A DNA stretch of 64,000 bases, taken from positions 1 to 64,000 of the IMG/VR virus record IMGVR_UViG_2921473944_000002; one strand, given 5' to 3'. The DNA is from a virus. Taxonomy: Duplodnaviria; Caudoviricetes. The notes beneath the pieces were generated by a model, which was not told the DNA's origin, did no database searches, and saw nothing but the letters and a program-made list of their open reading frames with translations. This document shows, one piece after another, positions 3,327 to 58,016 of the stretch (the first letter of the stretch is position 1; every line of letters begins with the position of its first letter). A program made the translations under genes and the position numbers.

Positions 3327-3690
3327 TCCGTGTATCCTCGTCTGTGTAGTAAATAGCTGCAGGCTTGATGTCATTGTCTGTCGCAACGTACATATCAAAA
3401 TCGCTTATCAGCATTCGTCTAAATACGGTATATAAAAATGTTTCATCAATACCCGGCTGAGCAATAATCTTATTTGCTCTAATGCCACGAGCCGCATCGC
3501 TTGCGTAGACGAATCGAATCATTGTTCCATCTTTCAGTTCAATCCAGCAGCTGCAACGTGATTTAATCATTTTGTTAACCATGTCATGAGGATATATGTT
3601 CAGAATCTTACTAAACATCTCGTCTCTCCATTCGATGTCAGTATATACAATTAAAATTCTTTGTCTTAATACTGTAGTTAAATCGTTCAT
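3316..3690 (-). CDS. hypothetical protein
   Basis: ORF coupled to the upstream gene by an ATGA overlap. Confidence 0.6.
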   Translation of the reverse strand: MNDLTTVLRQRILIVYTDIEWRDEMFSKILNIYPHDMVNKMIKSRCSCWIELKDGTMIRFVYASDAARGIRANKIIAQPGIDETFLYTVFRRMLISDFDMYVATDNDIKPAAIYYTDEDTRNVK

Positions 3691-17667: not shown

Positions 17668-20600
17668 CTACCACTGATATTTATTTTTCGATAGTTTACT
17701 GCCACCAGATAACTGGTCAACAGTCATAGAACGAATCATCTTTTCAAATTTTCCGTCTTTACGCATCTGATTCATAAAATCATTGTAGTCTTGTACATGG
17801 TCTATCGGAATAGTTACCTGATAGGTAATATCTCCGATATTTGTTGTGTCCTTGCCAGAAACCGGTGTGCTCATTTTGGCGATTTGTGATAATACATTTG
17901 TTGTACCATCATCTCCAAACAATGCACTGATTGGATTGCTTCCGTCTGCGATACTTCTCATCGCATCTTTTAATGCAATGAAGTTCTTAGTATCTTCTGG
18001 GTTAAGAACCATCTCAGGTTCCGTTGGAGATCCATCCAGCCAAGCAACTCCTGTGTAATCGGCGAGACCGCCCTTCTTAAATGCGCTGTAATAATACTGC
18101 GATAATTTACTCTTTCCTGTACTCACCCAATATCTATACAAATCTCCATTGTTTGCATGAGCATTGATGTAGCTTTGTACAGCAGCAGCGTTGGCAGCTC
18201 CAAATTTAGATGTTAGTCTACCTTTTCTGTCTGGGTCGTTTCCCCATCCAGATTTAGAGCCGTAAATCCAAATAGCAGCTGCAACACCTCGTTTTACATC
18301 TTCTGTAAACTTAGGGGCATTGTTTGCGGGCGTACTTGCAGGTGCAGAAGGAGCAGGAGGCTTTGCAGACGGGTCTGTCTTTGTCGATGGTGTAGCAGAA
18401 TTTATAGTTGAATCAGCCTTCTTATCGCTCTCCTTAACCATCGCTCCAATCTTATATGCTATCTTTGTGATAACATCATTTACGGATGTCAGCTGAGTAA
18501 GGAATGATTCTCCATATTTGGTAATTATGGAGTATCCACCGCCTTCATTTGACCAAATAGAACGCATCGCTGCAGATAAATCATAGCCGACCTTTTCACT
18601 TTGTGTTTGCAGTGTTGTGCTAATATTAGCCGAGTTGGAATTGATTGTAGCTATCATATCCGCCATTAAGGCATCGATATTATCTAAGCGTTCATTCAAG
18701 ATTGCTTCATATTCATCATATAGATTATCGAGAAGCTTTTTCTGTTCGCTGATATAATGTTCGTACTGTGTCTCTTCCAAGTCGTCCATAGCATCAGCTA
18801 AGTCAACCTGAATTTTCTGTATAGTGGCTTTGGTTTCTTCAGAATTATCTCCAGAGTAAGCAAGCAATTGCTTTTGAAGTTTAGCAATTTCTGATGACTG
18901 CTTCTCAATGTCTTTCTGATAATCATGCAAATTCTTAGCCGTGTCTATAGCATCAGTGTATTTATCAATTAAATCCTGTAAGGCATCAAGTTCTTTTTCG
19001 ATACCATCAGCTACGAGGTCTTTAATTGCTTGTTTTTCATCCTCAGCTGCGAGAATTGCATCACGTTGCGCCTCTAATAGGTCTTGTCGATGTTCTAATA
19101 ATTTTGTATTATTAGGGTCATTAGCAATCTCTGCGTTCAACTTCTTTAACTCTTCCGCATATTTATCAGCCTGAGCCATATATACATTATAGTTCTGACC
19201 ACGGAGACCAAGTGTTGCCATACCTGTATCGGTAAATTTACCGTTATCAGTATATAGATTTGAGTTCTCCATTAAGTCAATCATGAAGTTTGCTTCGTCA
19301 GTAATATTGCTTATTTGTTCTTGCAGATAATCGAAGCGATCCCATTTCGTCTCACGTATTGAATTCTGGAATTTTACTAAAGCTGTCTCAGATTCTTGTA
19401 TTGCTTCTTTAACAGAATTGATATCATTCTGCATATCATACCAAGCTTCACTACCTTCTTTAATTTCTCCAGAGTTAACGGCTTCTGACATGGATTTTAC
19501 AAGCGAATCAAGTTCTTTCTTTTGAATATCAATGTTCTGTTTTTCAACATTTTGCATTGCTTCGTAGAATTTAGTACTTGCAAGATATCCACGCTCTTCA
19601 AGGTCGTCAATGCCATTGTCATACGTGTTTGTAAGATGCTCTAAAAGACTGAGCTGATTTTCAAAATCATTCGAGAGATTATCAAATCTATCCTTATATA
19701 AATTTGCAATTTCTTTATGCAAATCAGCCACTGCATCTTTTGCTTCGATTGCTTTTTCATAGAAGTCCTGATAATCTTTAATCTTATCAGCTAAGTCTTC
19801 ATCTGTTACAGTGGATATCTCAAATGAACCTTCATGTATCTTTCTAGCCCATGTTTCATCAAGACCGAGAGAATTGGCTTTTGCCATATAGCTTTCGTAT
19901 GCACGATTTTCTACATTGATTTTATTTGCTACGGCAGATATCTCCGATACTAGAGCACTATTACGCGTCGTAAGTGTCTTGAATGCACTATCTGCAATAA
20001 CTTTTAAGCGATCGATAGCTTCAGAAGCTCTGTCTACAGCAATGGCAATTAAGTCAAATTCTTCCTCAAACTCTTTTTCAGCGTCATTATTTGAGCTTGA
20101 GCTTTTAGAGGATGACTTCGTACCGCTTGTCTTACGAGAGCCGCTTGTCTTACTAGAGCCACTTGATTTTTTCTTGCTTGAACTAGATGTCTTATGAATA
20201 GATGAGCTGCTTCCAGAGCTAGGTCTGCGACCACCTCCTGACCCACTTTCATAAGCAGATAAATTCAAGGTATTAAATGCTGTACCATCAGCCAAGGCAA
20301 CTCTGCCGTGACCTCCTCCAGACGTAATACGTCCACTTTTAATGAGTTCTTTTGTCTGTTCGGCTGAAAAGATGATGTCTCCCTTTTTAAGCTGTGCTAT
20401 CTGTGCGCCGCCAGGAATAGGAAACCATCTACCATTTCTAACAATTGACTCAGTGCCAAGCTCATTAACAAGAGCACTTTCATCTTTCATCAGAGACCAG
20501 TTATTACCAGCTGCATATGCTCCAATAGAATCTCTGTAATGATTCCACATAGACATCACAGTACCATCTGCGTGTGCAGTACCATCTGCGAATCCTACTT

Positions 20601-23600
20601 TATTTGCAATAATTGTTTGCCTTAATGTTGGCAGGAACGTAGGATAACTTCCGAGCGTGTAATTTGCCTTACCTGTCGCATCTGGAACCGTAGTAGGAGA
20701 TGTACCTAAGTTAAAATTTGCAGTACCTGTTGCGTCATCAACTTTCTCAGGTTCAGTTCCTTTTTGATAATTAACAGGAACCTGTATACTTGATGGTTGT
20801 GTGTTAAGCTGATTAACAATGGCATTTACGTCACCTATGTTTTCAGCCTTAATGCCAACTGCAATCTGTACGGACTCTGGAAGACTGGCTAACTGTGTTG
20901 CAAGATTAGCTATCTGGTCTGTATTTGCAGCTCTTGCCTCAACGCTAAGCGGAGCAGAAGTGAGAGCTCTTAATTGTTCTACAATAGCGATAGCGGTATC
21001 CAAACTTCCATCTGTTTCGGCATTGATTTTGGCATAGTATGTCTGTTCGCATTTAGCAATAAGTTCGTCTAATGCTGCGGCAGCCTCCGGATTTGTTTCT
21101 GCATCAATATTGACTCGTTCATTTTTTAACTGATCAATATAAGACTGCAGATCTTCAATAGGAGCGGTATCAACATCAAAATCTAAATTGATTGAATCTG
21201 ATATCTTACCAGCTTCTTGTAAATCCTTTAGCGCCTCTACAGCTTTTTCTACCTCTCCGGAAAAATCAAGGTCTGTCATATCAACAGCCATGCCAGCATC
21301 AATCATGGCACGCTCAAACAACTCAACTGCTTCGGTTGACATTCCAAATGCATCAGCTACCTGTTTGAGCTTATCTCCATTGAAATCGAACTGGTATGTA
21401 CCATCCTCATTCATCTTGGCAAACGAGTCTCCCATTTTCCTGTTGACATCATCAAGAAAGTCGTAAAGACCATCGGTAACCAGATTGTTATCATCGTCAT
21501 ATTTCCAATAATCGAGTATGCTGTGGCTTGTACCTTCTATCGTTTTTCCAAGCTTCTCGAAGTCCGCTGCTGCGTCTCCGGTTCGTTGCTGAGCAGACAG
21601 CAGAAGGTCGAGATAGGCATTCAGAGACTCATCTCCGTACCATCCTTGGTCGAGAGTATTTTTCATACTTTCGTATGCATTGCCGAGGCTTTCGTAGGAG
21701 TCTCTTTCTTTGCTTCCATTCATCGCACTAATAAGCTTGTTATAGGCAGAGGTAGCTCCTTCTAATTCACTCTTGAGCAATTTCGCGCTTGCAAGCTGTG
21801 ACTCCAACTCAGAAGTGTCTTCGCCTTTGGCACGTTTCTCATATATCTGATCTCTTAATTTTGAAATCTGATCAGAGAACTCTTGTATTTTATTTGCATT
21901 TAACTGGTTATTTAATTTCTCCAGTTCATCGGCATTCAAATGAACACCATTAGCTGTTTCTTCAAATAACTTATATGGGTTGTAGCCATCTAAGTCTTTG
22001 TATGCAGTAGTAAGATTGTCTATATCATCTGCTGTTAATCCAGTAGCTGATTTTGAATTTGATAAGGCTGTCTGTACTTTCTCCTGCGTATCCTGCAAAT
22101 CGGATAGTGCGGACTTTAAGTTTTCAACGGCATTCGTTGTACTTTCAAGACCTTCCACCGGCTCTCCGGAAATAATACCAAGCTCGACAAGCATATTAGC
22201 CAGTTTTTGAATACTTGCTGAAGATGTATCACTGATAACACCTGCATCAAGAGCAGCTTGAACTAAAGCATTGATCTGTTCTTCGCCTTCTTGCACACCA
22301 TCTGTCTGGAATGCATAAACAAAGTCTTTATCATCTAACTTCAAGTCTTTTAATGCATCAGCAGCCTCTTTTACTTTCTTTGATGCATTTGATGTATCTA
22401 CACCATTAATCGCATCTTTGAAGTTTTGCGCGCTTACAGCAGCAGTATCAAGCTGGTCGCTGATTTCATTAAATGAATCAGCATAACCGCTCATATCTGA
22501 CTGAAGCAATGACTGAACAGATTCGTCAACGGCATCGAACTCAGCTTTCGCCTCAGCAATTTTTGATGTGTCACCACTTGCTAGAGCATCATTGTAATTT
22601 TCGACAGCTTTTGAATAATCATTTAGCCATTTTGCAGCAGTCTGTGATACGCCATTAGTGCCTTTATACTGGTTTTTATCTCCGGCAATTTCTGCAGCCT
22701 TAGCTTGCTCATAGACTTCTTGATATTTGTCAAGTATCTTATTTGCGTCCTTGAGACTACTTTCTGAATAACTGAAAATATCGTCCAACATATAGTTGCC
22801 ATCGAGCTCTTCAGATGCGTTGCGGACATCTGTCATAAAGTCGTTTAAAGCCGCTTCTGCTTGAGATGCATCTCCATCAAAATAGAGGAGCATTTCACCA
22901 CTAGCACCTTCTCGTGATGTAATTAAATCACCGTATTTTTCCTGAGAAGCTTTGATTGCCTTTTTTAGAGCTTCCGAGGCTTCGTCTCCAGTATCATAAT
23001 ACTGACCAAGGTAATAGGTTCTTTTCTTTTCCATTTCCTTGGTAGCTTTATCAATACCTTTCTGATTTTCATTCAGATATTTATTTGCATCAGACTGACT
23101 CAACTGCTCCATCAATCCGATTTGTTCACGAAGTGACCCGTTTACAAGATCTATCCCATCAGCCTGACTTCCATATGAATCAGTCAGAGATTGCTGAATC
23201 GACAAAAGTTCTGATTTTGCTTGATATGCCTCTTGTTCCGAAAGAGTTCCTGATGCAAGCTGTGCTCTCAACTCAACAACTCTGTCTTTATAATCACTCA
23301 GTGAATTATTTGTTTCTTTCCATGCATTACCAGCTTCCTGAGCAGCTTGAACCTGTTTCTGCATATAGTTATCATAGGCTTTCCATACTAAGAAAGCCGC
23401 ACCGACAGCTGCGATAATGCCAACAAGCGGAGCTAATGCGCCAAATAGAGCTGTTGCTCCAGCTCCAAGAGCAGCGAATACTCCAGATCCAGCTGCTGAC
23501 GCTGCTTGCATTGCACTAATTGCTACAGTAAGTTTCGGAAATGCTACTGACAACGCTTCGATAATACTTGTAAGCGTCTTTGCTCCTTCAATACCTTTTA

Positions 23601-23607
23601 TAGCAGA
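17668..23607 (-). CDS. tape measure protein, exon 2
   Basis: Long Ala-rich helical ORF with no good RBS; frame stays open up to 23613; joins exon 1 in frame at the predicted splice site. Confidence 0.85.
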   Translation of the reverse strand, partial: SAIKGIEGAKTLTSIIEALSVAFPKLTVAISAMQAASAAGSGVFAALGAGATALFGALAPLVGIIAAVGAAFLVWKAYDNYMQKQVQAAQEAGNAWKETNNSLSDYKDRVVELRAQLASGTLSEQEAYQAKSELLSIQQSLTDSYGSQADGIDLVNGSLREQIGLMEQLSQSDANKYLNENQKGIDKATKEMEKKRTYYLGQYYDTGDEASEALKKAIKASQEKYGDLITSREGASGEMLLYFDGDASQAEAALNDFMTDVRNASEELDGNYMLDDIFSYSESSLKDANKILDKYQEVYEQAKAAEIAGDKNQYKGTNGVSQTAAKWLNDYSKAVENYNDALASGDTSKIAEAKAEFDAVDESVQSLLQSDMSGYADSFNEISDQLDTAAVSAQNFKDAINGVDTSNASKKVKEAADALKDLKLDDKDFVYAFQTDGVQEGEEQINALVQAALDAGVISDTSSASIQKLANMLVELGIISGEPVEGLESTTNAVENLKSALSDLQDTQEKVQTALSNSKSATGLTADDIDNLTTAYKDLDGYNPYKLFEETANGVHLNADELEKLNNQLNANKIQEFSDQISKLRDQIYEKRAKGEDTSELESQLASAKLLKSELEGATSAYNKLISAMNGSKERDSYESLGNAYESMKNTLDQGWYGDESLNAYLDLLLSAQQRTGDAAADFEKLGKTIEGTSHSILDYWKYDDDNNLVTDGLYDFLDDVNRKMGDSFAKMNEDGTYQFDFNGDKLKQVADAFGMSTEAVELFERAMIDAGMAVDMTDLDFSGEVEKAVEALKDLQEAGKISDSINLDFDVDTAPIEDLQSYIDQLKNERVNIDAETNPEAAAALDELIAKCEQTYYAKINAETDGSLDTAIAIVEQLRALTSAPLSVEARAANTDQIANLATQLASLPESVQIAVGIKAENIGDVNAIVNQLNTQPSSIQVPVNYQKGTEPEKVDDATGTANFNLGTSPTTVPDATGKANYTLGSYPTFLPTLRQTIIANKVGFADGTAHADGTVMSMWNHYRDSIGAYAAGNNWSLMKDESALVNELGTESIVRNGRWFPIPGGAQIAQLKKGDIIFSAEQTKELIKSGRITSGGGHGRVALADGTAFNTLNLSAYESGSGGGRRPSSGSSSSIHKTSSSSKKKSSGSSKTSGSRKTSGTKSSSKSSSSNNDAEKEFEEEFDLIAIAVDRASEAIDRLKVIADSAFKTLTTRNSALVSEISAVANKINVENRAYESYMAKANSLGLDETWARKIHEGSFEISTVTDEDLADKIKDYQDFYEKAIEAKDAVADLHKEIANLYKDRFDNLSNDFENQLSLLEHLTNTYDNGIDDLEERGYLASTKFYEAMQNVEKQNIDIQKKELDSLVKSMSEAVNSGEIKEGSEAWYDMQNDINSVKEAIQESETALVKFQNSIRETKWDRFDYLQEQISNITDEANFMIDLMENSNLYTDNGKFTDTGMATLGLRGQNYNVYMAQADKYAEELKKLNAEIANDPNNTKLLEHRQDLLEAQRDAILAAEDEKQAIKDLVADGIEKELDALQDLIDKYTDAIDTAKNLHDYQKDIEKQSSEIAKLQKQLLAYSGDNSEETKATIQKIQVDLADAMDDLEETQYEHYISEQKKLLDNLYDEYEAILNERLDNIDALMADMIATINSNSANISTTLQTQSEKVGYDLSAAMRSIWSNEGGGYSIITKYGESFLTQLTSVNDVITKIAYKIGAMVKESDKKADSTINSATPSTKTDPSAKPPAPSAPASTPANNAPKFTEDVKRGVAAAIWIYGSKSGWGNDPDRKGRLTSKFGAANAAAVQSYINAHANNGDLYRYWVSTGKSKLSQYYYSAFKKGGLADYTGVAWLDGSPTEPEMVLNPEDTKNFIALKDAMRSIADGSNPISALFGDDGTTNVLSQIAKMSTPVSGKDTTNIGDITYQVTIPIDHVQDYNDFMNQMRKDGKFEKMIRSMTVDQLSGGSKLSKNKYQW

Positions 23608-24603
23608 CTCTTTTCAAAGGTAATATCATGTGGTATGATAAATAAAAAAGAAGGAGAGTAGTAACATGGCACTTATTAAATGTCCGGAATGCGGTGCTCA
23701 AATATCTGACAAGTCATCATGTTGTATACATTGTGGATATCCACTACAAGATGTTGATAAAATACCAGATTTATATTGCGTGAAACGAATTGAGGATAAG
23801 TGGGTACTTGGCAAAGCAAGAACTTTATTAGCTCAAATATATGTCACAAATACGCATTCATCTGAAAATAGTGATTATTCAATTATAGCGTCAGGAATTA
23901 CAAAGGATAGAGCAGAAATGCTATTAGATTTTATCACTAAAAACAGAGGAGAAGCAGAAGTGATTATCGATGAAGCAAGTCAATCTATCAATCAAAAGAT
24001 GATGGATTTTATCGATATCAACTTCAATAAAAATGCACCTGTCATGTGTCCAAGGTGTAAATCAACTCAAATTACAACAGGGCAAAAAGGATTCAGTTTA
24101 TTAACTGGATTTATTGGAAGCCATAAAACAGTAAACCGATGCGCAAAATGCGGTTATACTTGGCAACCATAATTATCTTCTTATCAACGCCGATATAAGG
24201 CGTACCACAATTAAAGTGAGAGATAAGTTCTCACTACACGAGGACTATACATTAAAAGTCACTACACTAGGCAGTAGTGGCTCAAAGGGTGGGTAGTCTC
24301 TGAGGATGAAGCTGTGAGTCTTCGTCCGGCTGATGTTATCCTATCCGCAGATAATATCTGCAAGGCACTTAGGCTTACTATCACCATATGCCATCCAATC
24401 ATTTGTTTCTGCCTTTCGCAACATTCACGCATATCATTTCCGATTACGTTGTAGTATGATTGGTTTAACCAGTTTCCCAGCAATTACCCCTTTGTGTGAT
24501 TTATTTTCAAACGCTCACCCATAGTCTTGGCTCATATCTCCATAATGATACGTCCTTAACCATGCCGACCTCTACTATAAAAGTAACCCATGATTTTGGG
24601 TCA
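23608..24603 (-). mobile_element. group I intron (996 nt) in the tape measure gene
   Basis: P AATTGCTGGGAAA (24485-24473), R TCAGAGACTAC (24303-24293), S AATGTATAGTCC (24253-24242), P3 and P7 pairings; IGS 24583-24566 pairs with both exon ends; terminal G at 23608. Confidence 0.88.
23666..24172 (+). CDS. zinc-ribbon protein (intron cargo, antisense to the host gene)
   Basis: CPECG...CIHCG and CPRC...CAKCG motifs; AAGGAG RBS; extended -10 TGGTATGAT at 23631-23639. Confidence 0.85.
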   Translation: MALIKCPECGAQISDKSSCCIHCGYPLQDVDKIPDLYCVKRIEDKWVLGKARTLLAQIYVTNTHSSENSDYSIIASGITKDRAEMLLDFITKNRGEAEVIIDEASQSINQKMMDFIDINFNKNAPVMCPRCKSTQITTGQKGFSLLTGFIGSHKTVNRCAKCGYTWQP

Positions 24604-26730
24604 AGCCACGTTCTTTACTATTTTGACAATACCTAATCCAGCAAGAATTGTTCCAAGAGAACCTACTGAATTAACCACTGCATCAATAGCCTCTACGATA
24701 CCTTTGAGAGCATCAACAGCACCTTTTGTTACATTGGAACTGATAAAGTCAGATGACAGCTCCTGAAAAGCTGCTTTCAATTCTCCGACTTTTGCTTTCG
24801 TTGTATCCATGTACAGATTATTCGCTTCTGTTGCAGCTCCGGCTGAATCCATAGCACTTGAGTAAGCACCTATTGCATCCTTGATATTTGTGATAGTAGA
24901 CATGATACCAGAAGTATTACGTGTACCACCAAGAATTTCTGCAACACGGGACTGAGATACATCTTCCATGTTATCCCAAACCTCAGCTAACTGTACAAAA
25001 ATGTCATACATGTCTTTATATGTGTTTTCATCTTTCATGATGTCAACACCGGATAAAGCAATGATTTCTTCTCTATATTTAGACAAACCTTGAGCTAATC
25101 CGTCTGTCTCTTCGCCCATCTCTTCGAGTTCTGTTGTAGCTCCACGAATACGAGCACTAACTGTCTTCCACATTGTACCTGTGGTTTCAGCGTTCTGCAG
25201 GGATGCATTGGTAGCAGCGAACAGAGCAGCACTTTTCTCAAAATCGGTTCCAGATGCATGGAGAGCAGCACCACCTCGCTGGAATGCAGCCATAAGCTCC
25301 TCAGCTGAAATAGCGTATTCCTGACCTACTTTTATAAGTACATCTGATACATGTTCTGCATCACTTGCGTCCATTTCATATCCCTTGATAATAGAAGTAA
25401 TACCAGTTGTAGCTGTATCTACATCTGTATTACCTACATTAGCCATGATATTCGCGTATTTAGCTAAGCCAGCAGATTCATTCATTCCATATCCAAGTCT
25501 GGCAAACGTTTCAATCGAAGATGCTACATCCGTAACACTTTGACCAAGCTCTTTTGCTAGGGCGATAGAACGTGTAAGGAATGATTCCATCTGTGAATCA
25601 GACGCTCCAGTAACAATCTGGATCTGATTCATAGCGCTTTCAACTTCAACGGCTGCAGATACCATTTGCTTGGCAGTTCTAACAGCGTACATAATTGCTT
25701 GCGATACAGTAAGCCATGAAGAAAATTTTGCAGCAAGACCGGATATTCTATCACCAAATGATTGCGTATTTTCTCCGGCTGCTCTAATTGCGGTCGAGGA
25801 ATCAGTCACAGCGGCTTTAATAGAAGCAAACCGTTCTTTGAATTGTTCTGCAGAAACGGAGCCATTCATTAATCCTGTTTTTAATGATTCTAATGCAGTA
25901 ATCTGATCTTTAAGTGATGCGTAGCTTGCACTTGTATTGCCATTTCTTGCAGCAGTCCATTTCTGTGTATTTGCAGTTACCTGTCCAAGTAGCGTATTCA
26001 CTTTCGTCAGTGCCTGAGTGTGTTTTTCAGTTCCAGCAGCAAATGCGGCTTCGTTTGCAGCGGCTTGCTTTTCTGCCTCTGCCATTTTTTTAGCAGCATC
26101 AGCGGCTTGCTTTTCTACTGCAACTCGTTGCTGAGTTTTGCTGATTAAATTTTGCATATCAGCCTGCAATTTATAGACATTGTTTATATCTTCTTGCGTA
26201 GCTGATGACTTCAATGATTTTAGACGGGTCACAGCTTCTTGAAGTTCGATATATTTTGACTTCATTGCATTTAAGTCAGATGCGTTTTGTCCAGTAGCTG
26301 TCGATCCACCAAGTGTTTTTTGCAAGTTCTTATATGCGGACGTGATATTCGCATTAGTTGCCTGAATTTCTTTTAAAGACCCACTTATTGCAGTTGCTTG
26401 TGCTTTAGCAGCGTCGGCGGCTTGTCTACTGGCGTTGGCATTACTTGTTTTAGCCTGAGTATTAGCTTTTATGGCTGCCGTATCCTTTAACCATATACCT
26501 GAATTTGTTTGTGTGTATCCATTTAATTTGGTTAAACTACCTGCGCTTGCAGCAGCTTTTGTCATTGATTCAATTTGCTTTCTCATAGAAGACAAGGATG
26601 AATCATCAAATTTAAGTTTTATTTTCGGTGGATTAGCATTGACTTGAGCAACAAGGCTGGTGATTCCAGCTTGAAATTCAGCATAGCTCAACGAAGTATC
26701 CACGCCGACTGTCAGTAAAATGTCAGCCAT
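24601..26730 (-). CDS. tape measure protein, exon 1 (TP901-type core)
   Basis: Ala-rich helical protein with IETFARLG, GTMWKTVSARIRG and AEILGGTRN core; the TGA is the first three nt of the intron. Confidence 0.88.
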   Translation of the reverse strand: MADILLTVGVDTSLSYAEFQAGITSLVAQVNANPPKIKLKFDDSSLSSMRKQIESMTKAAASAGSLTKLNGYTQTNSGIWLKDTAAIKANTQAKTSNANASRQAADAAKAQATAISGSLKEIQATNANITSAYKNLQKTLGGSTATGQNASDLNAMKSKYIELQEAVTRLKSLKSSATQEDINNVYKLQADMQNLISKTQQRVAVEKQAADAAKKMAEAEKQAAANEAAFAAGTEKHTQALTKVNTLLGQVTANTQKWTAARNGNTSASYASLKDQITALESLKTGLMNGSVSAEQFKERFASIKAAVTDSSTAIRAAGENTQSFGDRISGLAAKFSSWLTVSQAIMYAVRTAKQMVSAAVEVESAMNQIQIVTGASDSQMESFLTRSIALAKELGQSVTDVASSIETFARLGYGMNESAGLAKYANIMANVGNTDVDTATTGITSIIKGYEMDASDAEHVSDVLIKVGQEYAISAEELMAAFQRGGAALHASGTDFEKSAALFAATNASLQNAETTGTMWKTVSARIRGATTELEEMGEETDGLAQGLSKYREEIIALSGVDIMKDENTYKDMYDIFVQLAEVWDNMEDVSQSRVAEILGGTRNTSGIMSTITNIKDAIGAYSSAMDSAGAATEANNLYMDTTKAKVGELKAAFQELSSDFISSNVTKGAVDALKGIVEAIDAVVNSVGSLGTILAGLGIVKIVKNVA

Positions 26731-27363: not shown

Positions 27364-27975
27364 TTATTTTTCTCCATTAGGCATCTTTACAATGTTTGCC
27401 TTTTTATTTTGAGATGCAAAAGCCTGCACAATCTTACCCTCATCAATATTTCCATTCGAGATAGCATTGACTAACTTCTTTATATCGTCCTGCTCCACAC
27501 CAGTGAACAGCGCGGCAATATTGTTCTGTAAATTCTCGAATTCATCATTGATACGATTCATTTGTGCATAAACCATTTGTACATTTGCCTGAGCTAAATT
27601 TGCTATTTTCTGTTCAATAGCATTGATGATCTCGCCAAACTGTCTTCCTTCGATGCGATTCAATACGGCATCCACAATATCAGAATTATAAATAACTGCA
27701 TACCTTGTAGGTAAATCTGTAGGTAAATCGAAATTAGCATACATTTCCAGTAAACAGCTTTTGATTGCGAAGTCTTTCACTTCTGGTAGATACTCTCCAT
27801 CGTCACTAAAGCATGTCTTTACGACATAATCAACGAACTCAAGCATAGTTTCCATTGGAAGAGTTCTATTTACCACAATACTTATACCGTTCCATTCAAA
27901 CTCTGTAGTCTGTTCTGTAATTTTATTTACAGCTTCAACTAGTGTAGATGCATCAATTCTATTTACTTTTTCCAT
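27364..27975 (-). CDS. hypothetical protein (possible tail assembly chaperone)
   Basis: ORF between the major tail and tape measure genes. Confidence 0.45.
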   Translation of the reverse strand: MEKVNRIDASTLVEAVNKITEQTTEFEWNGISIVVNRTLPMETMLEFVDYVVKTCFSDDGEYLPEVKDFAIKSCLLEMYANFDLPTDLPTRYAVIYNSDIVDAVLNRIEGRQFGEIINAIEQKIANLAQANVQMVYAQMNRINDEFENLQNNIAALFTGVEQDDIKKLVNAISNGNIDEGKIVQAFASQNKKANIVKMPNGEK

Positions 27976-28447
27976 TATTTTCTTCCTCCATTTTCTCTTT
28001 TTCGGATTCGCGTTTCATCTTTCTACGGATGGCACGTTGTTTCTTAACGTATTCGTAAGAGCACCATCCTCCATCAATTCCTGAATAGGTAATCCATCTA
28101 TAATCTACGTTCGGATATTTATACCAAAATAATTTTCTTTTAATATTAGCAACTGAATCCGGACATCCCTTTGTGTCAATAACTACTTCAGTTCCGTCCT
28201 TATACACAATGAAAAAATCTGCAACGTAGGTAATCGGATGAACGTTTTTGTCGTCATGTTTGAACTTTGGTTGTAACTCATATGGTTTCTGAAGCTCAAA
28301 TCTTACCACATCGCCACTCTCCACTAGGGGGCAAAGTACATCACGATAATATTTCATTTCAAGTATGGAATCGAATACGATACCATCATAAGTACGCTTT
28401 GAAGTGTCTTTATCGACATTGAATTTTGTTCTTGCGATAATAATCAC
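27959..28447 (-). CDS. DUF1064-family PD-(D/E)xK nuclease
   Basis: DGIVFDSILE...LQPKF...YVADF...VIDTKG motif. Confidence 0.8.
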   Translation of the reverse strand: MIIIARTKFNVDKDTSKRTYDGIVFDSILEMKYYRDVLCPLVESGDVVRFELQKPYELQPKFKHDDKNVHPITYVADFFIVYKDGTEVVIDTKGCPDSVANIKRKLFWYKYPNVDYRWITYSGIDGGWCSYEYVKKQRAIRRKMKRESEKEKMEEENNGKSK

Positions 28448-51276: not shown

Positions 51277-52151
51277 GAGCGAAAAAGCTGAGAATCCAGA
51301 GAGTTCGCCTATGTCAGATGCGCGGTATATAAATATAATCTGACATAGTATACAAACCGCCATATAATGCAAGATACGGAACGGATGAGCATGGGCGCTC
51401 TATAAAGGTAAATCCGTTGGTTAATTGATACGAAAATCCTTGCTAATAAGTTCTTAACGAAGAGTCTCTCTATTGAGGGGCTTTTCTTTATGGGCTTATG
51501 TCCATACGACTGTGAGGTCTACCTGCTCACAGGTAATAAGTGCATATATCGGTATCTTTCGGGGTATCGTGAGGGCTACCTGCGTGATAGGAAATAAGTG
51601 AACTATACCAGTTGAAGCGTTCAATATGGGAAATCCGGCAAAAGGACGCTATACAAACAGTTTCGGTGAGCCGACCTGCCGACGGCTTTAGAATATCGGT
51701 AAAACTCTGCGGTTATCGTGGATTCCTTTAACCGATTTGAGGGAGTACATCTGCTATCAGATGCGTCGATGGTGCATGAGAGTTAGGCTCATGGTTTCGA
51801 GATAGTGAAAATCCCCATAGTTAGGCAGAGTTAGATGTGAAATATATGCCGCATTATCCTGAGTGCGTCAAAATGAGGGATAGCTTGAAAATCTACAAAG
51901 GATTTCCAATCATGACGGTATCAGTACCCGAGGGTACGTCGGCTATGTTCCAAGGAATTAAATGCCGGACTGTTGTGGGATTTCCGATGATAGACAGAGT
52001 ATAGCGAGAAAATTGAATATTGAACGGAATGCGTAAGCATTCTGATAAACCTATATTGAGCGTCCGAGATTGTGCATATCGCATGGTTTCGGGCGTTCTC
52101 TTATGGGCTTATCCCATATAAAAATCAGAGAATCCAGAGAGGAGAATCATT

Positions 52152-57942: not shown

Positions 57943-58016
57943 GGATTGTTAGCTCAGGTGGTTAGAGCAACCGGCTCATAACCGGTCGGTCATCCGTTCG
58001 AGTCGGATACGATCCA
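57943..58016 (+). tRNA. tRNA with CAT anticodon (Ile2-like or Met)
   Basis: GGATTGT/ACGATCC acceptor, ACCGG-CTCATAA-CCGGT anticodon arm, GTTCGAGT T-loop; lacks the initiator GGG/CCC anticodon stem. Confidence 0.88.

Follow-up and report, generated by a model that had tools for sequence, protein, structure and literature searches.

What occupies the DNA between the two parts of an interrupted phage tape-measure gene? The locus lies in a 64,000-nucleotide stretch of a caudoviricete virus (IMG/VR record IMGVR_UViG_2921473944_000002, positions 1 to 64,000; hereafter the window), in which gene callers split a 2688-aa tape measure into products of 709 aa and ~1960 aa. We identified the minus-strand segment 24603-23608 as a 996-nt group I intron in codon phase 0 of the tape-measure gene (intron nt i corresponds to position 24603-i+1) and, judging from its sequence, it is very probably functional and spliced. 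An earlier note, made from the letters of the window alone, had claimed that a group I intron splits this gene, and the claim is borne out by uninterrupted homologues, an intron-less allele, and compensatory changes in the helices of the ribozyme. The host prophage of the element is roughly 117 kb long and probably resides in Ruminococcus or another member of the Oscillospiraceae.

The joined reading frame and its uninterrupted homologues

The 709-codon upstream ORF (26730-24601, minus strand) terminates in ...AAC GTG GCT TGA, with the exon 1 end GTGGCT at 24604, and the downstream frame is open from 23607 to 17668, beginning with the codons TCT GCT ATA AAA GGT (DNA start TCTGCTATAAAAG). Joining 24604 to 23607 yields a single open frame of 2688 aa (709 + 1979) that reads KNVA-SAIKG across the junction (here and below, a hyphen within a protein sequence marks the junction). 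Both this protein and the positions given earlier for the end of exon 1 (24604), the intron (24603-23608), the guide (24583-24566), and the start of exon 2 (23607) proved correct. Exon 1 is matched by PF10145 PhageMin_Tail (E 7e-26) and by positions 310-940 of the tape-measure profile phrog_4211 (2625 positions); the C-terminal 1010 aa of exon 2 correspond to profile positions 1905-2603, collinear with the exon 1 match.

A 500-aa query spanning the junction aligns straight through the tape-measure genes of Enterocloster phage PMBT24 and Brevibacillus phage Sundance, each a single gene (tblastn), and a large protein database contains more than 900 uninterrupted homologues of 2300-3300 aa, which match the end of exon 1 at up to 83% identity. 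Gap-free alignments traverse the junction in several of these, including P0021, which reads IKHVASAVKE where the window has KNVA-SAIKG; the alignment with intron-less homologues that had been proposed as a check thus favors the intron, and hundreds of the homologues are single proteins. In the DNA of the P0021 gene (L028), GTGGCT is followed directly by TCTGCTGTAAAAG, which corresponds to the two flanks of the window joined, with one difference in 19 nt. This intron-less allele fixes the insertion point to the nucleotide. Against phage records, megablast of 23000-25200 gave no match, and neither did tblastn with the N-terminal 300 aa of exon 2; the latter region is fast-evolving, and the large protein database did yield homologues.

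If the intron were dead, or the insertion inert, the tape measure would be made as two polypeptides (709 aa and ~1960 aa, the latter from TTG 23553) or the prophage would be tail-defective, an alternative that we consider improbable. A 1961-aa ORF is indeed called from TTG 23553, and the source record is a provirus, which could be decaying. However, CheckV estimates its completeness at 99%, no good ribosome-binding site (RBS) is seen before TTG 23553, exon 2 is open directly from the splice site, and both exons are open and in phase over 2688 codons. That the homologues are single proteins also argues against two polypeptides, as does a related locus (L017) where the frame of exon 1 stays open for 33 codons of intron sequence, showing that no protein end is conserved at the boundary.

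Related introns and the pairing of the splice sites

Copies of the intron were retrieved with a 19-nt core pattern and with the antisense ORF that the intron contains (discussed below). The core pattern is found in nine other viral contigs and in two metagenome-assembled genomes (MAGs), from Ruminococcus sp. and Oscillospiraceae. Ten of these 11 copies read at the same tape-measure site; the exception is the copy in the Oscillospiraceae MAG (L031, 7330-7800), which has the same P7/P3' core with a different 5' part and a different-looking exon context. The copies form approximately four lineages: the window with L009, L010, and L011; L021, L022, and L030; L017 and L018; and L020 with L025-L027.

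The internal guide sequence consists of CTTTTATAGTAGA (24583-24571), which pairs with the beginning of exon 2 as P10, followed by GGTCG (24570-24566), which pairs with the end of exon 1 as P1. The window P10 comprises 13 bp, 12 of them Watson-Crick and one G.U, and P1 comprises 5 bp with a U.G pair at the splice site, just as the earlier note had read them. This 13-pair run is the only guide match of at least nine pairs that follows a G within 4 kb downstream of the core (the next best has eight), and simple arithmetic gives a probability of (6/16)^13, or ~3e-6, that 13 allowed pairs arise by chance at a particular site.

The guide covaries with both exons in all four lineages, in line with the earlier proposal that it defines the splice sites. 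In P1, the U.G pair and the adjacent C-G pair are invariant in all eight sequences aligned; position -4 is G-C in the window, C-G in L017, and U.G in L025, and at position -3 the lineages have G.U, A-U, or G-C. P10 spans 13 bp in L009 (all Watson-Crick) and in L010 (one U.G), 8 bp in both L017 and L021, and 6 bp in L025, a range that indicates that the long P10 of the window is a derived extension of a conserved pairing. Within P10, L021 has U-A in place of C-G at exon 2 position 5 and C-G in place of U-A at position 8, and L025 has C-G in place of U-A at position 6. The intron had been said to end in G, which it does at 23608, and a G likewise precedes exon 2 in L009, L010, L011, L017, L021, L022, and L025, and so in every lineage. 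All of the ligated junctions are in phase 0 (KNVA-SAIKG, KNVA-SVTKD, KSIT-SAIKG, and KSIA-SVLKD). Splice sites shifted by +1 or -2 nt were rejected, as either the terminal G or the U at position -1 is lost. Because the antisense gene is inserted between P9.1 and the 3' terminus of the intron, ~750 nt separate the core from the 3' splice site, and the long P10 may help to capture this site.

Taken as DNA, CTTTTATAGTAGA (24583-24571) and TCTGCTATAAAAG (23607-23595) also constitute an inverted repeat near the ends of the insert, and the insert carries an ORF of unknown function. The element might accordingly be an insertion sequence or a miniature inverted-repeat transposable element with terminal inverted repeats, or an IStron, a fusion of a group I intron with an IS200/IS605 element; the 13-bp complement would then be a terminal inverted repeat and not P10. 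We regard such an origin as barely credible: the right arm is coding sequence shared with the intron-less L028, excision between the repeats would leave the frame broken (the stop at 24603-24601 lies outside them), and the target-site duplication is absent. No transposase, TnpA, or TnpB was found; specifically, the intron contains no tnpA or tnpB, the antisense zinc-ribbon ORF being its sole ORF. Moreover, the repeat covaries as an RNA pairing, including G.U, and the remaining insert folds as a group I core. The transposon reading of the complement was rejected on the strength of L028, which contradicts it, and of the RNA covariation.

Structure and covariation of the ribozyme

The intron can be drawn with 16 helices, from P1 to P9.1 with a P3/P7 pseudoknot (Table 1), and the structure was evaluated in an alignment of eight sequences including the window. 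Over its 94 pairs, 93.9% of cells are paired, compared to 36-42% when the 3' partners are slid, and both sides have changed in 27 pairs, compared to two to six in the slid controls; none of 500 shuffles reached the observed values. MAFFT misaligned P4, P6, P2a, and P9.1 of three distant sequences, in which these helices were read by hand, so the 93.9% is an underestimate. In the aligned sequences, the helices are supported by compensatory changes. For example, the P2 inner stem UAUC/GAUA becomes UACC/GGUA in L010; P5b changes among relatives from AUCG/UGAU to AUUG/CAAU or ACCG/CGGU, and P8 from CACUAC/GUAGUG to UACCAU/AUGGUA or UAUCAU/AUGAUA; and P9.1 is ACGCC/GGCGU in the window, ACGCU/AGCGU in L009, and ACGCA/UGCGU in L010. 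The 27 compensated pairs and the covariation of guide and exons indicate continued selection on both the fold and the splice-site pairing, which is a further argument against a dead intron.

Both the P4-P6 domain and the 5' strand of P7 lie within P3. The P5 extension includes P5a (8 bp), a hairpin with a GAAA tetraloop (loop 24440-24437), and a hairpin with UAUGG/CCUAAG (24388-24384 and 24373-24368), which we take to be the 11-nt GAAA-receptor motif. P7 is formed by an R-like element, CAGAGACUAC (24300-24293), and an S-like element, UAUAGUCC (24249-24242), and the R and S elements UCAGAGACUAC and AUGUAUAGUCC are invariant in the eight sequences. With the invariant P7 and the six-pair P3, they correspond to the core elements and pairings recognized earlier. 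The R and S elements presumably match the consensus, and their bulge-plus-G-C arrangement is presumably that of a guanosine site, making P7 a candidate guanosine-binding helix. Between the 5' strand of P7 and P3' there are just 4 nt, CCCA (24293-24290), which leave no room for P7.1/P7.2, so the intron does not belong to subgroup IA, unlike most phage introns.

Table 1. Positions of the tape-measure exons, the intron, its helices, and the antisense gene in the window
Feature	Positions	Strand	Description
Exon 1, tape-measure gene	24604..26730	-	709 codons, C-terminal ...KNVA; ORF list, PF10145, phrog_4211
P1 exon strand UGGCU	24604..24608	-	Pairs with GGUCG 24570-24566; final U is in the U.G wobble of the 5' splice site
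Group I intron	23608..24603	-	996 nt; 5' UGA is an in-frame stop; 3'-terminal G
Intron 5'-end hairpin UGACCC/GGGUUA	24584..24603	-	Stacks on P1; A-U to G-C in L017
Internal guide sequence	24566..24583	-	P10 guide CUUUUAUAGUAGA 24583-24571, then P1 guide GGUCG 24570-24566
P2 CAUGGUU/GACUAUG	24493..24564	-	Inner stem CGUAUC/GAUAUG, variable P2.1; 5 pairs changed on both sides
P3 AAAGGG/CCCUUU	24493-24488 with 24289-24284 (span 24284..24493)	-	6 pairs, 100% paired in 8 sequences, almost invariant
P4 and large P5 extension	24329..24481	-	P4 is 24481-24477 with 24333-24329; helices P5a-P5e
P6 GGACGAAG/CUUCAUCC	24304..24327	-	Conserved C.A mismatch; distal pairs compensated in L017, L025 (hand reading)
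P7 G-[A]-GACUA/UAGUCC	24300-24294 with 24247-24242 (span 24242..24300)	-	Invariant, 100% paired; pseudoknot with P3
P8	24279-24260	-	Between the P7 strands; 5/6 pairs changed on both sides
P9 and P9.1	24235-24215 and 24203-24187 (span 24187..24235)	-	Alignment helices 15-16
Antisense ORF P0001	23666..24172	+	168 aa: zinc ribbon, alpha/beta middle domain, second zinc ribbon
Promoter-like site and RBS of antisense ORF	23611..23656	+	TTTTCA-17-TATGAT 23611-23639, TGg before the -10 box; GAAGGAG 23650-23656
P10 target UCUGCUAUAAAAG	23595..23607	-	Exon 2 nt 1-13, all 13 paired contiguously with the guide
Exon 2, tape-measure gene	17668..23607	-	1979 codons and stop, N-terminal SAIKG...; open frame, phrog_4211, homologue alignments

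Silence of the Rfam model and relatives of the core

Several points weigh against a functional, splicing intron. P1 is short, with three wobbles among its 5 bp, and no confident assignment or convincing drawing of P5 proper could be made from the alignment. The alignment itself rests on only about four independent lineages, and the structure was derived from the window sequence, which biases the slid control in its favor. An antisense transcript could interfere with folding or splicing. Finally, the Infernal search suggested earlier, with the group I model RF00028 (gathering threshold 50 bits), detects nothing: there is no match in the window at the gathering threshold, none even at E <= 10 in 23300-24900 or 24180-24615, and none in four related loci or in the whole 117-kb record, a silence that would suit a dead intron. 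However, the same model scores a partly related intron, in the portal gene of Brochothrix phage A9, at 38.5 bits, under its own gathering threshold, and its seed lacks subgroups ID and IE (survey, PMC11878797). Based on these two observations, we treat the silence of RF00028 as a limit of the model and not as evidence against the intron.

Intron nt 111-239, covering P3, P4, and the P5 extension, are 71-81% identical (blastn) to unannotated gaps in structural genes of intron-rich Bacillota phages. These gaps are located between the halves of the A9 portal gene, beside an 'intron encoded nuclease' in Staphylococcus phage phiIPLA-RODI, and in Staphylococcus phage PMBT8. In PMBT8 (L006, 1387-2621), three tandem RF00028 matches (36-92 bits) occur within 1.1 kb. 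They are followed by a fourth intron-like block that matches the window P3-P5 and has no RF00028 match, in an unannotated gap upstream of tail genes.

An antisense gene within the intron

Half of the intron is filled by its only ORF, P0001, encoded on the strand opposite the ribozyme (Table 1); the earlier account, sound in its reading of the intron, did not mention it. Among the related introns examined, all those whose locus extends over this part have an intact antisense ORF, and intron and ORF have been kept together through at least four diverged lineages. Comparing the window to L009, the ORF has a dN of 0.069 and a dS of 1.48 (dN/dS 0.05), its synonymous sites being near saturation (dS 1.5), and the ribozyme part of the same pair is ~94% identical; both the RNA and the protein are thus under selection.

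The promoter-like site upstream of the ORF includes an extended -10 box (TGgTAnnAT) that occurs at the same place in L017, L021, and L025 (TGGTATACT, TGGTAAAAT, and TGGTATAAT). Transcription of the antisense gene is most likely independent of the late operon, and splicing would remove the gene, with the intron, from the mRNA of the tape measure. In L017, the segment from P9.1 to the end of the antisense ORF (~3535-3660) contains ~120 nt more than in the window's intron; part of the extra sequence is a G+C-rich hairpin that leads into UUUUAUUUU on the intron strand and resembles an intrinsic terminator inside a late-gene intron.

The antisense ORF belongs to a family of more than 900 members, mostly free-standing genes in Bacillota and their phages. 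Pfam assigns only zinc-ribbon families to it, except that 24 of 60 relatives also match PF00542 (Ribosomal_L12 C-terminal domain), the middle domain of many relatives being of this L7/L12-like type. Eight Cys are invariant, as are Gly, Pro, Asn, and Ser residues; no acidic residue is, E8 and D15 being nearly so. Both terminal zinc ribbons are conserved, but the middle domain is of two unrelated-looking types, one in the window, L009, and L017 and the other in L021, L025, and L030, which suggests domain swapping inside a fixed zinc-ribbon frame.

Searches of Pfam, PHROGs, motifs, and folds revealed no nuclease signature (LAGLIDADG, GIY-YIG, HNH, His-Cys box, PD-(D/E)xK, or EDxHD), and all PHROGs matches are function-unknown families. 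An HNH reading of the second zinc ribbon was rejected, there being no conserved His. An AlphaFold model (pLDDT 84.7) has no match in the PDB at E <= 0.001 (best E 0.08), with weak matches to the L7/L12 C-terminal domain and ClpS, and the ESM Atlas returned only unnamed zinc-ribbon and L12-like clusters. By these searches, the product is not a recognizable homing endonuclease.

The association of ORF and intron raises the alternative of a genuine intron that depends on a protein cofactor, perhaps the zinc-ribbon protein as a maturase, or is regulated by the antisense transcript, in which case tape-measure production would be conditional and not constitutive. In its favor, nucleic acid binding is common among zinc ribbons, a long distance separates the 3' splice site from the core, and the ORF accompanies the intron in all four lineages and is under strong purifying selection. 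In addition, four of eight tested Bastillevirinae introns were seen to splice only in infected cells (PMC11878797). On the other hand, most of the family is free-standing in bacteria and phages with no intron nearby, and a middle domain swapped between intron lineages would be odd for a protein with a specific RNA partner. We consider this alternative unlikely, though less so than a dead intron. A tentative possibility is that the intron provides a 'safe harbour' for an independently transcribed accessory gene within an essential late gene, or that P0001 is the first of an unrecognized class of intron-associated mobility or splicing factors. If the safe-harbour hypothesis is correct, the cargo could be expressed from the prophage with the tail operon silent and then be spliced out free of cost.

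A proposed model for splicing

For a functional group I intron with this anatomy, splicing would proceed as follows. In the late transcript, P1 would form between the guide GGUCG and UGGCU at the end of exon 1, placing the U.G at the cleavage site, and an external guanosine bound in P7 would attack the 5' splice site. The 13-nt guide just upstream of GGUCG would form P10 with exon 2 nt 1-13, drawing in the distant 3' splice site, and the terminal G (23608) would take the place of the external guanosine in the binding site. Ligation of the exons would then generate ...KNVA-SAIKG... in the 2688-aa protein. In unspliced RNA, translation would be expected to stop at the intron-initial UGA, resulting in a 709-aa truncated product. 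It is a reasonable inference that tail assembly depends on splicing, and formation of the virion tail should accordingly depend on an RNA-catalyzed step.

Comparison with known introns

Group I introns are known from three tape-measure sites (TMP-IVS1, IVS2, and IVS3) in Bacillus cereus-group prophages, where they belong to classes IA1/IA2 (Tourasse and Kolsto 2008, PMC2504315), so the location in this gene, reported in 2008, is not new. Tail-tube and terminase introns were described alongside them (PMC2504315), and capsid and tail-gene introns are known from mycobacteriophages (PMC3706429). The earlier statement that phage introns are mostly reported in DNA-metabolism, terminase, and lysin genes was therefore incomplete, as tape-measure, tail-tube, portal, and capsid introns had already been published (PMC2504315, PMC3706429; for the portal gene, phage A9).

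Like the intron in the window, the Bacillus introns reside in prophage tape-measure genes of Bacillota and have splice sites set by P1 and P10; in both, the guide is adjusted to the local target, alleles without the intron are known, and prophages serve as passive carriers. They differ in class, the Bacillus introns being IA1/IA2 whereas the window intron lacks P7.1/P7.2 and is missed by RF00028 (a distinction drawn from their description), and in host, which is Bacillus in one case and gut Clostridia in the other. At least two of the prophage introns described there, TMP-IVS3b and the tail-tube intron, are without a complete homing endonuclease gene (PMC2504315), whereas the window intron contains a complete antisense gene with no nuclease signature.

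The introns of Herelleviridae, in the A9 portal gene and a Staphylococcus Kayvirus virion gene, share with the window a position in late structural genes and 71-81% identity over ~100-127 nt, covering P3-P4-P5 and the extension. However, the similarity stops after the P5 extension, the A9 intron has a long insert between P7 and P3' (P7.1/P7.2-like) that is absent from the window intron, and the nuclease gene of the Kayvirus intron ('intron encoded nuclease') is on the sense strand, while the window ORF is antisense. In phage T4 nrdD (sunY) and similar introns, as in the window, a large ORF lies downstream of P9/P9.1 and the far 3' splice site is brought back by pairing. The T4 nrdD ORF is a sense-strand homing endonuclease gene, in contrast to the antisense ORF of the window with its own promoter-like site and no nuclease signature.

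Genes on the strand opposite the ribozyme are known from eukaryotic nuclear rDNA group I introns, which include antisense His-Cys box homing endonuclease genes, for example at position L2066 (PMC9548176). The rDNA introns are eukaryotic, interrupt rRNA genes, and carry nuclease cargo, whereas the window intron is in a protein-coding gene of a bacterial virus and its cargo is not a nuclease. We found no example of a phage group I intron with an antisense gene in the literature, although this is weak evidence of absence. What sets the present intron apart is the non-IA core missed by RF00028, the host range in gut Clostridia, the unusually long P10, and, above all, the conserved antisense non-nuclease gene with its own putative promoter.

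Implications and other features of the window

The antisense cargo is the unusual part of this intron and could show that phage introns carry cargo besides homing endonucleases. With a P10 that ranges from 6 to 13 bp and, in the window, a 3' splice site ~750 nt away, the related introns also form a convenient natural series for studying the choice of the 3' splice site.

The locus also bears on annotation. In L017 (4058-4165, minus strand of the locus), there is no stop at the start of the intron, and the called exon 1 protein, at 745 aa, reads 33 codons into the ribozyme; gene callers thus produce a chimeric C-terminus. Given the split gene calls and the silence of RF00028, large gut-phage catalogues probably mis-annotate this gene family.

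Among the tail genes of the window, two ORFs upstream of the tape-measure gene, is a gene for a RuvC-like Holliday-junction resolvase (27959-28447, minus strand; phrog_190, E 1.5e-37). Enterocloster phage PMBT24 likewise has a 'RuvC endonuclease' gene directly upstream of its tape-measure gene. Elsewhere in the window, the plus strand contains a full-length RAGATH-16 RNA (RF03047) at 51748-51820, scoring 89.8 bits against a gathering score of 65.6, and a tRNA gene at 57943-58016 (RF00005, 62.4 bits), whose anticodon loop CUCAUAA suggests the anticodon CAU (Met or Ile2).

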